Positions 36,701-39,700 of a stretch of 64,000 nt of DNA are shown piece by piece (position 1 is the stretch's first letter; every line of letters begins with the position of its first letter). The stretch lies in the NCBI RefSeq assembly GCF_057098645.1, contig NZ_CM169472.1; one strand, written 5' to 3'. The position numbers are program-made.

Positions 36701-39700
36701 GAGAAAGAGGTGAGCTGGTTTTTACCGTGTTAGGTGTGCTTTTGTGCTGTGAGGCAGTGAAGCTACTGTTACGCGTAACACTTGATATACTGCGAGGAAT
36801 GCTGGAAAAAAAAGAATTAATGCTATTTATCATATAGATAACCTTATAAGAACTTTATGTGATAGTCTAATTTATCCGTTTGCATGAAATCTACCTTTTG
36901 TGAAATTCTCGTCAATATTTTACTCAAAATGATCGGCTGTAGGAATAAACTATTTGATATTATTGCGTTTTTAGAGTTGTTTTCAATCAGCTATAGATAG
37001 GGCTTGAACCGCCCCGGGTTTCCTGGAGAGTGTTTTATCTGTGAACTCAGGCTGCCAGATCATCGTTTCCGATGGAAGCATAATAAGCTTTTTCTGCTTC
37101 TGCCGGGGGAGTATGGCCCAGCCTTTCCAGCAATCGTCGATTGTTATACCAGTCCACCCACGTGAGTGTGGCCAGTTCCACTTCTGCACGGTTTTTCCAG
37201 CTCTTACGGTGTATTACCTCCGCTTTGTAAAGACCATTGATGCTCTCCGCCATCGCGTTGTCATACGAGTCACCTGTACTCCCTGTTGATGCCAGCAGTT
37301 TTGCTTCTTTTAGTCGCTCCGTATAGGCCAGTGATACATACTGAGAACCTTTATCACTGTGATGGACTGTGCCGGACGGCCGACGGGCCCACAACGCCTG
37401 CTCCAGTGCATCCAGCACGAATGTCGTTTCCATGGACGATGAGACCCGCCACCCCACGATGTATCCGGCAAACACATCAATGATGAACGCCACATAGACG
37501 AAGCCCCGCCATGTGCTGACGTAAGTAAAATCAGCCACCCACAGCTGGTCAGGTCGTTCTGCCACGAACTGACGGTTTACGCGGTCGCCTGCGGCAACGG
37601 CTTTCCGGCTGATGGTCGTACGGACCTTTTTACCCCGGAGAACACCGGCAAGTCCCATAACTGCCATGAGACGTGCCACAGTGCATCTGGCCACTCTGAT
37701 ACCTTCCCGTAACAACTGACGCCAGACTTTACGCACACCGTATACCTGGTGATTTTCATCGTATACGCGCTGTATCTCTTTCTTCAGCCAGTCATCGTGC
37801 TGCGCACGGGCACTGCGTTTATCCGGATGATGTCGCTGTTGCTGACAATGGTAATACGTTGACGGGGCAATATGCAGTTCGCTGCATAGCGGTCCGACCC
37901 CGTACTGCTCACGCAGCTTATCCAGCAGTGGCATCATTTTTTCCAGAGGCGGTCGAACTCCGCCTTCGCAAAATAAGCGGAAGCCTGGCGAAGGATATCG
38001 TTACTGCGGCGCAGTTCACGATTTTCACGCTCCAGCTCTTTCAGACGCTGACGTTCAGCGGTGGTGAGCCCGCCATCACCGCCCCCGGTATCCCGCTCAT
38101 GCTGGCGAACCCAGACACGCAGAGTCTCCGGCGTACAGCCAATCTTTGGAGCAATGGAACAAATTGTCGCCCATTGTGAGTCATATTCATCCTGACTTTC
38201 CAGAACCATACGAATCGCCCGCTGACGGACTTCGGGGGAAAAACGAGTATTTTTAGTCATCCTGTTTACCTCTTTCTCAGGGAGTTTAGTCTCCAGGATT
38301 TCCGGGGCGGTTCAGCTTGGCGCCAGAATGGAGAATATTTAACGAGAAATAGAAGCTTTGTATCAGACGGGCTTCCCTGAATAGAGAAGTTAAATAATCA
38401 GGATGATGCTAATGAATATCAGGAACAAGGTGAGTGTCTTCATGTTCACTGAAACAGGGTGTCACAAAAAATATGGCTATAAGATGATCAATGTGATTTG
38501 AAATATTTATAGGTTTACAGGGGGCTGGGCATGCATATCTTACTGCAATGCAGAATATGTGCTGCTTGGCGCAGCTCTTTATTGAGAATGTTCAATCTTT
38601 TGTTTCAGTTTCGTGAAGGATACGGACGGTTTCTTGTGTAATATTATACATCGCCTGTTTATCTTTACTGCATACTCCTGCAAGTGTTAATGCTACTCCA
38701 GCATAAATTTCTGGATAACTATGTGTAAATATATCCAGTGAGTTTACATGTTTCTCTTTCATTCCTGCATCACAACGAACCTTATTTATACCTGTCGCCA
38801 TTGATTGGGGAGGGCTAGAGCCTTCTGCACGAAAATAGTGATGTGACAGATCTGAGATAGCTTTGTATCCTTCTGCCTGGTTCAGGCCTGGAGCAGTCCA
38901 TGTTTTACAAAAATACTCGGCAGCGTAACGTGTTGCAAGAGCGGCATCAGACGAGGAACCTGAGGTTCCGCTCATGACCGATAATCTCATCCGAATAAAA
39001 ATATACCAATTGGTATACCAAGTTTATACCAAGAGCCAAAAAACAAAGGGGCTACCATTTGGTAACCCCTTGATTATTTGGCGGAAGCGCAGAGATTCGA
39101 ACTCTGGAACCCTTTCGGGTCGCCGGTTTTCAAGACCGGTGCCTTCAACCGCTCGGCCACACTTCCGGAATGACGCGCACTATAAACATCCCGATGCGGC
39201 GTGTAAACCCCTAATTTGTTTGTTTGCCTGAAAAACAGCCAAAAGTGCATTGATAGCGTGAAATAACAGCAGATTGATCATTTCATCACCATGAATTCCT
39301 TCTCTTTTGCTCGTTTAGCAACTGGCTAAACATCCCACCGCCCGGCAAAAAGAAAAATAGGTCCATTTTTATCGCTAAAAGATAAATCCACACAGTTTGT
39401 ATTGTTTTGTGCAAAAGTTTCACTACGCTTTATTAACATTACTTTCTGGCGACGTGCGCCAGTGCAGAAGGATGAGCTTTCGTTTTCAGCATCTCACGTG
39501 AAGCGATGGTTTGCCTTGCTACAGGGACGTCGCTTGCCGACCATGTGCGCCCGGTGTCCTGCCGGTGTCGCAAGGAGGAGAGACGTGCGATATGAATAAC
39601 GAGGAAACATTTTACCAGGCCATGCGGCGTCAGGGCGTTACCCGGCGCAGCTTTCTCAAATATTGTAGTCTGGCTGCCACGTCGCTGGGATTAGGCGCGG

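Follow-up and report, generated by a model that had tools for sequence, protein, structure and literature searches.

The DNA analysed here, referred to below as the window, is a 64-kb stretch in which a prophage meets the chromosome at the tRNA gene serT (Table 1). An intact tRNA-Ser at 39079-39166 had been predicted from the sequence at this prophage junction, and ARAGORN indeed returned exactly those coordinates, one of four tRNA genes it called in the window, the other three forming a phage-type cluster at 754-1003. The Rfam model RF00005 covered 39082-39166 of the gene with 57.5 bits, against a gathering score of 29. All 88 nt of serT are identical to the serT of a K-12-like strain, and the same 88-nt sequence is present in 5425 of the 5426 complete E. 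coli genomes searched. Upstream of the gene, a consensus scan revealed a sigma-70-like promoter match, which lies on the chromosomal side, has the sequence of the empty site and is thus unaltered by the insertion. The whole of the chromosome to the right of serT (39170-64000, 24.8 kb) matches several E. coli O145:H28 genomes at 100% identity. The arrangement originally described, in which the accessory end of the prophage adjoins serT and the hya operon lies beyond, is therefore what is found: phage DNA occupies the 3' side of serT, and hyaA begins at 39593.

Table 1. Features around the serT junction, with coordinates in the window.
Feature	Position	Strand	Basis or remark
tccP2 (Tir-cytoskeleton coupling protein 2)	35799-36833	minus	intact 344-aa ORF, 141-nt proline-rich repeats
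IS629/IS1203-type element, IS3 family	37005-38314	minus	between tccP2 and espV remnant
espV remnant, C-terminal part only	38592-38990	minus	type III effector gene; abuts P arm directly
Phage P arm of attR (POB')	38987-39073	no strand	common to attP of phage Evi; absent from empty sites
TATACCAA cluster, four motifs (three direct, one inverted)	39002-39032		motif count against shuffles
Phage-supplied intrinsic terminator of regenerated serT	39036-39071	minus	terminator scan, folding
att core / identity block, 65 nt	39074-39138	no strand	TTATT + reverse complement of serT nt 29-88
serT, intact tRNA-Ser(UGA)	39079-39166	minus	ARAGORN (anticodon TGA); Rfam RF00005
Sigma-70-like promoter match	39179-39207	minus	upstream of serT; TTTACA, 17-nt spacer, TATAGT; consensus scan only
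hyaA	39593-40710	plus	first gene of hydrogenase-1 operon; chromosomal neighbour of serT

On the prophage side, tccP2 is the gene by which prophages of the Sp4/CP-933M type are marked; to its left, tail and head genes extend as far back as the phage tRNA cluster. DNA identical to the espV remnant is annotated in RefSeq as 'secretion protein EspV, missing N-terminus', and the remnant matches positions 273-402 of the 402 of PHROG 26984. RefSeq sequences identical to this DNA likewise annotate TccP2, the IS1203-family element and the tail genes. The IS629/IS1203-type element is flanked by a 3-bp target duplication, GCT, and is absent at this place in the O145:H28 strain RM13514. An IS21-family element interrupts the tail fibre gene. 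Altogether, the prophage bears three IS insertions, and these elements have further copies in the genome; with such insertions, excision might take place but yield no particles. When the prophage was searched in 20-kb pieces against the E. coli collection, no genome gave full-length identity, the best reaching 86-89% coverage at ~99% identity.

A second copy of the 3' part of serT was not found within the 64-kb window, even with up to three mismatches allowed. This single copy places the integrase end outside the window, as had been proposed. It had also been held that the att core could not be defined without the other junction. The window by itself indeed offers only one copy, but related genomes do define the core, at 65 nt. 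We read the left junction in four such relatives: the O145:H28 strains RM13514 and RM9872, which were chosen by backbone for their 100% identity to the window right of serT, together with Z1323HEC0422 and O111:H- 11128. Every one of them has the prophage between yccA and serT, and the partial serT 3' repeat predicted for its left end is present as a perfect 65-nt copy in all four. In O111:H- 11128, a repeat finder revealed a perfect 65-nt direct repeat whose copies are 27.6 kb apart, one in serT and the other between yccA and the integrase gene; the same 65-mer stands beside the integrase gene in RM13514, RM9872 and Z1323HEC0422. The displaced fragment, written TTATTTGGCGG...AAGACCG, has the native terminator on its chromosomal side in the four relatives and phage sequence beginning AAGAAAAACAAATAAAAATCAG... 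on the other. The repeat, whose sequence is TTATTTGGCGGAAGCGCAGAGATTCGAACTCTGGAACCCTTTCGGGTCGCCGGTTTTCAAGACCG, consists of 5 nt of the serT trailer and serT nt 29-88, and within the gene it covers everything from base 2 of the anticodon stem's 5' strand, the stem beginning at serT nt 28, to the CCA end.

These relatives resemble the window well beyond the junction. The prophages of RM13514 and of the window are collinear between the phage tRNA cluster and serT, with 89-100% identity per block; most blocks reach 95-100%, and the last 986 nt are 100% identical. Compared with RM13514, the window prophage has three extra IS elements, and its late genes are ~97% identical to the O145 version rather than identical. 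The prophage of O111:H- 11128 is the same one with a large internal deletion of late genes. We infer from these comparisons that the genome of the window has the same left junction as its relatives, and its own attL is predicted on that basis.

At the empty site, as in the K-12-like strain, the order is yccA, terminator, serT and hyaA. Compared with this site, the window is free of mismatches only at 39074 and to the right of it; the preceding 40 nt are a diverged hairpin and T run. Megablast homology starts at 39034 or 39037, and a junction there was considered and rejected, because those positions fall in the diverged, phage-supplied terminator and perfect identity is reached only at 39074. 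BLAST thus puts the junction ~40 nt too far to the left, as the terminator brought by the phage resembles the native one.

To obtain the sequence of the phage site, we joined the phage arm and core of the window to the phage arm of attL, which gave a reconstructed attP of 317 nt, and searched a phage collection with it. Escherichia phage Evi (LR597642.1, 40 kb) carries 99% of the reconstructed attP in one piece at 93.4% identity, located between a remnant annotated as 'EspV effector' and the integrase gene. As in the window, the P arm of Evi adjoins the espV remnant and the 65-nt core; in Evi the P' arm and int follow without a break. This P' arm is ~90% identical to attL of the relatives, and the Evi integrase has 97% identity to its counterpart in the O145 prophage. 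Unlike the window, Evi, the 40-kb record of a free phage, lacks tccP2 at this end. We then aligned five sequences, namely the attP of Evi, the reconstructed attP, attR of the window, attL of O111 and attB of the K-12-like strain, and the alignment resolved into one common core with four arms swapped pairwise. The core is identical in attB, attP, attL and attR, and it is invariant across E. coli, phage Evi and a Salmonella contig. This alignment shows directly that attP DNA of the phage, its P arm, makes up window 38987-39073 and that serT owes its terminator to the phage. The same P arm is also common to a different, espK-carrying prophage at this site.

The phage-supplied terminator consists of a hairpin of 11 pairs (39046-39071) and, after it, a T run. 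Its likeness to the native terminator is only ~80% over 39034-39073, and the two hairpins differ by several substitutions, at least one of which changes a paired G-C to C-G. In folding, the window terminator reached -29.6 kcal/mol (z = -7.5) versus -22.8 kcal/mol for the native one. The native serT terminator is thus replaced by a phage one, and the native copy stays with the displaced fragment beside yccA. Next to the terminator, the octamer TATACCAA has four matches in the whole 64 kb, all of them within 39002-39032, a count that none of 100 shuffles reached. These motifs persist in a Salmonella attR contig whose surroundings have diverged, and one further copy is carried by the P' arm.

Taken together, we consider it very likely that window 38987-39166 is the attR (POB') of a lambdoid prophage of the Sp4/CP-933M type, inserted into serT by integrase-mediated site-specific recombination. 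Site-specific integration into serT, as suggested in the original prediction, is supported by the 65-nt repeat in the relatives and by the contiguous attP in Evi. In the mechanism that we propose, the phage attP carries 65 nt that match the final 60 nt of serT and 5 nt of its trailer exactly. On one side of this stretch stands the P arm seen in the window, with the substitute terminator and the putative TATACCAA arm sites; on the other would stand the P' arm, int and the Xis-like gene, which would be found beyond the left edge of the window, about 17-18 kb from base 1. An exchange somewhere in the identity block would split serT. The chromosomal promoter and serT nt 1-28 would thereby be joined to the phage-borne 3' part and the phage terminator, forming attR, and the original 3' part with the native terminator would be displaced to the int end beside yccA, forming attL. 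Since the phage supplies both the 3' part and a terminator, the cell would retain a working serT. Of the gene as it now stands, nt 1-28 (39139-39166) are chromosomal, nt 29-88 belong to the att identity block, and whatever lies 3' of the crossover comes from the phage.

All att copies are identical across the 65 nt, and the sequence thus offers no polymorphism by which to place the crossover point. The extent of the block nevertheless suggests where it falls. The identity block just enters the 5' strand of the anticodon stem and goes no further, which makes the anticodon loop the most likely exchange site; strand exchange probably takes place in this 7-nt loop, with the two halves of the anticodon stem acting as putative inverted core-type sites. 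A preprint (bioRxiv 10.1101/2020.11.02.365908, citing Williams 2002) ascribes to the anticodon-loop sublocation of tRNA-targeting integrases an identity block that reaches from the anticodon stem as far as the tRNA 3' end, and serT nt 29-88 form such a block.

It could be argued that the prophage sits in the intergenic DNA downstream of serT, at about 39034-39037 or in the 5-nt trailer, and that the tRNA gene was never cut. The megablast alignments of empty-site genomes do start at 39034 or 39037, a related E. albertii prophage has been termed 'inserted downstream of serT' (PMC10673567), and an exchange inside the trailer or the acceptor end would be compatible with the sequence. However, the stretch 39034-39073 has only its ~80% likeness to the native terminator, which is intact at the other end of the prophage, and attL has a duplicate of 60 nt of serT, which the attP of a free phage also bears. 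Carrying tRNA sequence up to the anticodon stem would be pointless for the phage unless the exchange took place that deep, and we regard an intergenic insertion as very unlikely. It is hardly credible that the DNA beside serT is an independent effector island, a tccP2/espV cassette, instead of a prophage end. Such an island would accord with the cargo, which consists of type III effector genes, with espV reduced to a remnant, and IS elements; yet the segment continues without a gap into tail-fibre, tail, head and lysis genes, which reach as far as the phage tRNA cluster, and the same espV remnant and P arm stand beside attP and int in the free phage Evi.

A further possibility concerns the far end of the prophage, where the matching attL at yccA may have been lost in this genome by inversion, deletion or a tandem prophage, leaving a true attR in the window. 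Lambdoid prophages often rearrange with one another in strains of this kind, and recombination between lambdoid prophages or between IS copies could be the route. The window prophage matches no genome of the collection end to end, it holds three IS elements that have other genomic copies, and O111:H- 11128 exemplifies a large late-gene deletion in the same prophage. Against a loss of attL, however, this junction is present at yccA in all four relatives, including the two O145:H28 strains with identical backbone, and the window and RM13514 are collinear over the whole span between the phage tRNA cluster and serT. We therefore think it quite unlikely that attL has been lost, and retain integration into serT with both junctions in place as the preferred reading.

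The prophage itself is of a familiar kind. In O157:H7, Sp4 of strain Sakai and CP-933M of EDL933 are tccP2-carrying lambdoid prophages whose P arm and core are as in the window, and the right end of the EDL933 prophage presents the tail fibre gene, tccP2, the espV remnant, serT and hyaA in the same order. The att-proximal tccP2 and espV remnant of this type are found here as well, in a prophage that in the relatives lies between yccA and serT. The window differs from Sp4/CP-933M in the IS629/IS1203-type element between tccP2 and espV and in the IS21-family element in the tail fibre gene, and its tccP2 is intact whereas that of O157:H7 is frameshifted. Published work locates tccP2 on prophage Sp4/CP-933M of O157:H7 (PMC2884950), lists serT among the prophage integration sites of O121:H19 STEC (PMC8767318) and describes an E. 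albertii Stx2f prophage at serT (PMC10673567). When we searched the literature for explicit mention of serT as the integration site of Sp4/CP-933M, only indirect support came up.

A comparable use of a tRNA gene is known from thrW. Williams 2002 is said to have assigned P22 and CP4-6-type integration at thrW to the anticodon-loop sublocation. There, too, everything from the anticodon stem through the 3' end is reportedly part of the block, the phage sequence is said to regenerate the tRNA, and int reportedly lies distal to the intact tRNA, all as here; the tRNA and the integrase lineage reportedly differ from those of the serT prophage. The serT junction is thus already known in prophage type, in site and in mechanism, the junction itself adds nothing new, and no open biological question hangs on it. 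What it provides is of use in annotation: in an O145:H28-like strain, the right boundary of a tccP2-carrying prophage is now fixed, with the att core at 39074-39138 and with 39073, plus whatever part of serT was exchanged, as the end of the phage DNA.

To see how often the site is occupied, we searched the 5426 complete E. coli genomes with an attL probe of 351 nt, comprising the native terminator, the repeat, the phage arm and the int end, and counted coverage of at least 80%. The probe was covered in 744 genomes (about 14%), indicating that such elements occupy the serT site in roughly one genome in seven. In empty-site genomes, the match to the probe ended at position 203, which is the last base of the repeat. 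The attR probe taken from the window was covered to at least 80% in 518 genomes. The 65-nt core together with the arm sequences of attL and attR can be used as a simple marker of serT occupancy.

The 744 precise insertions imply that the integrase is active. The enzyme, a protein of 339 aa (WP_001299351.1), is the same in the O145 strains and Z1323HEC0422. It matches Pfam PF00589 (Phage_integrase) with 33.5 bits against a cut-off of 27.1, as well as PHROG integrase families, and HMMER aligned it from residue 1 with full-length lambda Int structures (1Z1B, E = 6e-20), its N-terminus corresponding to lambda Int residues 1-60, the arm-binding domain. It shares 97% of its residues with the integrase of Evi, 50% with the one of Salmonella phage ST64B and 25-28% with the Int proteins of lambda, HK022 and 434. 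Immediately upstream of int lies a gene for an 80-aa DUF4224 protein that matches the PHROG 1266 excisionase (E = 2e-23). The system resembles lambda in the full-length integrase alignment including the arm-binding domain and in the Xis-like gene upstream of int, and also in its layout, which runs from attL and int to the tail fibre gene and attR, and in the repeated motifs of the P arm. It differs in its low sequence identity of 25-29% and in its target, which in lambda is a 15-bp core in intergenic DNA and here is a tRNA gene with a 65-nt identity block. The TATACCAA motifs are probably binding sites of the arm type for the N-terminal domain of the integrase, candidates put forward from motif pattern and domain alignment, and the cluster is consistent with a heterobivalent integrase.

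Five of the six catalytic residues of lambda Int (R212, K235, H308, R311, H333 and Y342) are conserved in the integrase. The exception is the position of R311, at which both MAFFT and HMMER alignments place Lys in the O145, Evi and ST64B integrases. In these alignments, then, the integrase is atypical in having Lys at the lambda Arg311 position. It is possible, if rather doubtful, that this Lys truly sits in the active site, in which case it would represent an unusual variant of the tyrosine-recombinase catalytic pocket in a lineage that is evidently active.

ST64B has the closest integrase of any named phage apart from Evi. As in the serT prophage, its attP contains a 3' part of a tRNA-Ser gene that includes the whole anticodon stem-loop. 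Unlike here, the fragment is tRNA-Ser(CGA)-like, from a different isoacceptor, and it is inverted, its CCA end facing int. Given this orientation, int of ST64B would adjoin the regenerated tRNA and not the displaced fragment. Within the integrase lineage formed by the serT phages, Evi and ST64B, the tRNA fragment thus occurs in either orientation relative to int.

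In strain 08_3418, the serT site is held by a different prophage with the same P arm (the phage side of attR) and the same att core as the window prophage (L003 2872-3181). It carries espK and a tail-fibre-assembly remnant instead of the window's tccP2 and espV. Therefore, the attP module is common to prophages that differ in cargo. A 27.6-kb remnant occupies serT in O111:H- strain 11128 (L004 21778-49418); its integrase gene is frameshifted, and its head and tail genes have been deleted, from the lysis genes to an IS1203 copy adjoining tccP2.

A serT-type attP, decayed but contiguous, was also observed adjoining espO in ompW-integrating prophages, as in Enterobacteria phage PPompW_132418 (L011 ~3000-3140). 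It comprises TACCAA motifs, a terminator, a mutated serT 3' fragment and the start of the P' arm (the integrase side), and several Stx2a-converting phage records contain the same decayed serT-type attP as PPompW_132418. It looks like a fossil attP that was acquired along with an effector locus.

Both MAFFT and HMMER alignments revealed that the catalytic Arg311 of lambda Int (FHELRS) is replaced by Lys (FHD[IL]KAKG) in the integrases of the serT phages, Escherichia phage Evi and Salmonella phage ST64B, whereas the remaining five catalytic positions are kept in all of them. In ST64B, some 115 nt past the int stop codon, there is also a 3' fragment resembling tRNA-Ser(CGA) (L014 2004-2065). The CCA end of this fragment points toward int, opposite to the orientation in the serT phage, even though the two integrases are 50% identical.

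Features of the window prophage and integrase genes in related sequences
Feature	Location	Strand	Remarks
tRNA cluster, phage-borne	window 754-1003	+	First gene, then tRNA-Arg(TCG), tRNA-Arg(TCT)
IS3-family (IS629/IS1203-type) copies, two inside prophage	window 7627-8937; 37005-38314
IS21-family element	window 32171-34805
istB-like ORF	window 32266-33264	-	Within IS21-family element
istA-like ORF	window 33038-34684	-	Within IS21-family element
tccP2	window 35799-36833	-	Intact 344-aa ORF; tandem 141-nt proline-rich repeats
Integrase, related prophage	L005 17259-18275		Outside window
Other integrase genes with Lys at the Arg311 position	L007 3802-4818; L014 901-1887		Outside window

Comparison with the collinear serT prophage of the O145:H28 strain RM13514 indicated that the tail fibre N-terminal-domain gene of the window prophage is split by the IS21-family element. 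The window prophage is probably defective. The IS3-family copy between tccP2 and the espV remnant has a 3-bp target duplication, GCT. In the phage-borne tRNA cluster, the first gene was called tRNA-Met(CAT) by ARAGORN, whereas the RefSeq annotation of the homologous gene is tRNA-Ile. In O111 11128 and RM13514, the annotated tccP2 alleles are 894 nt, shorter than the tccP2 gene of the window.
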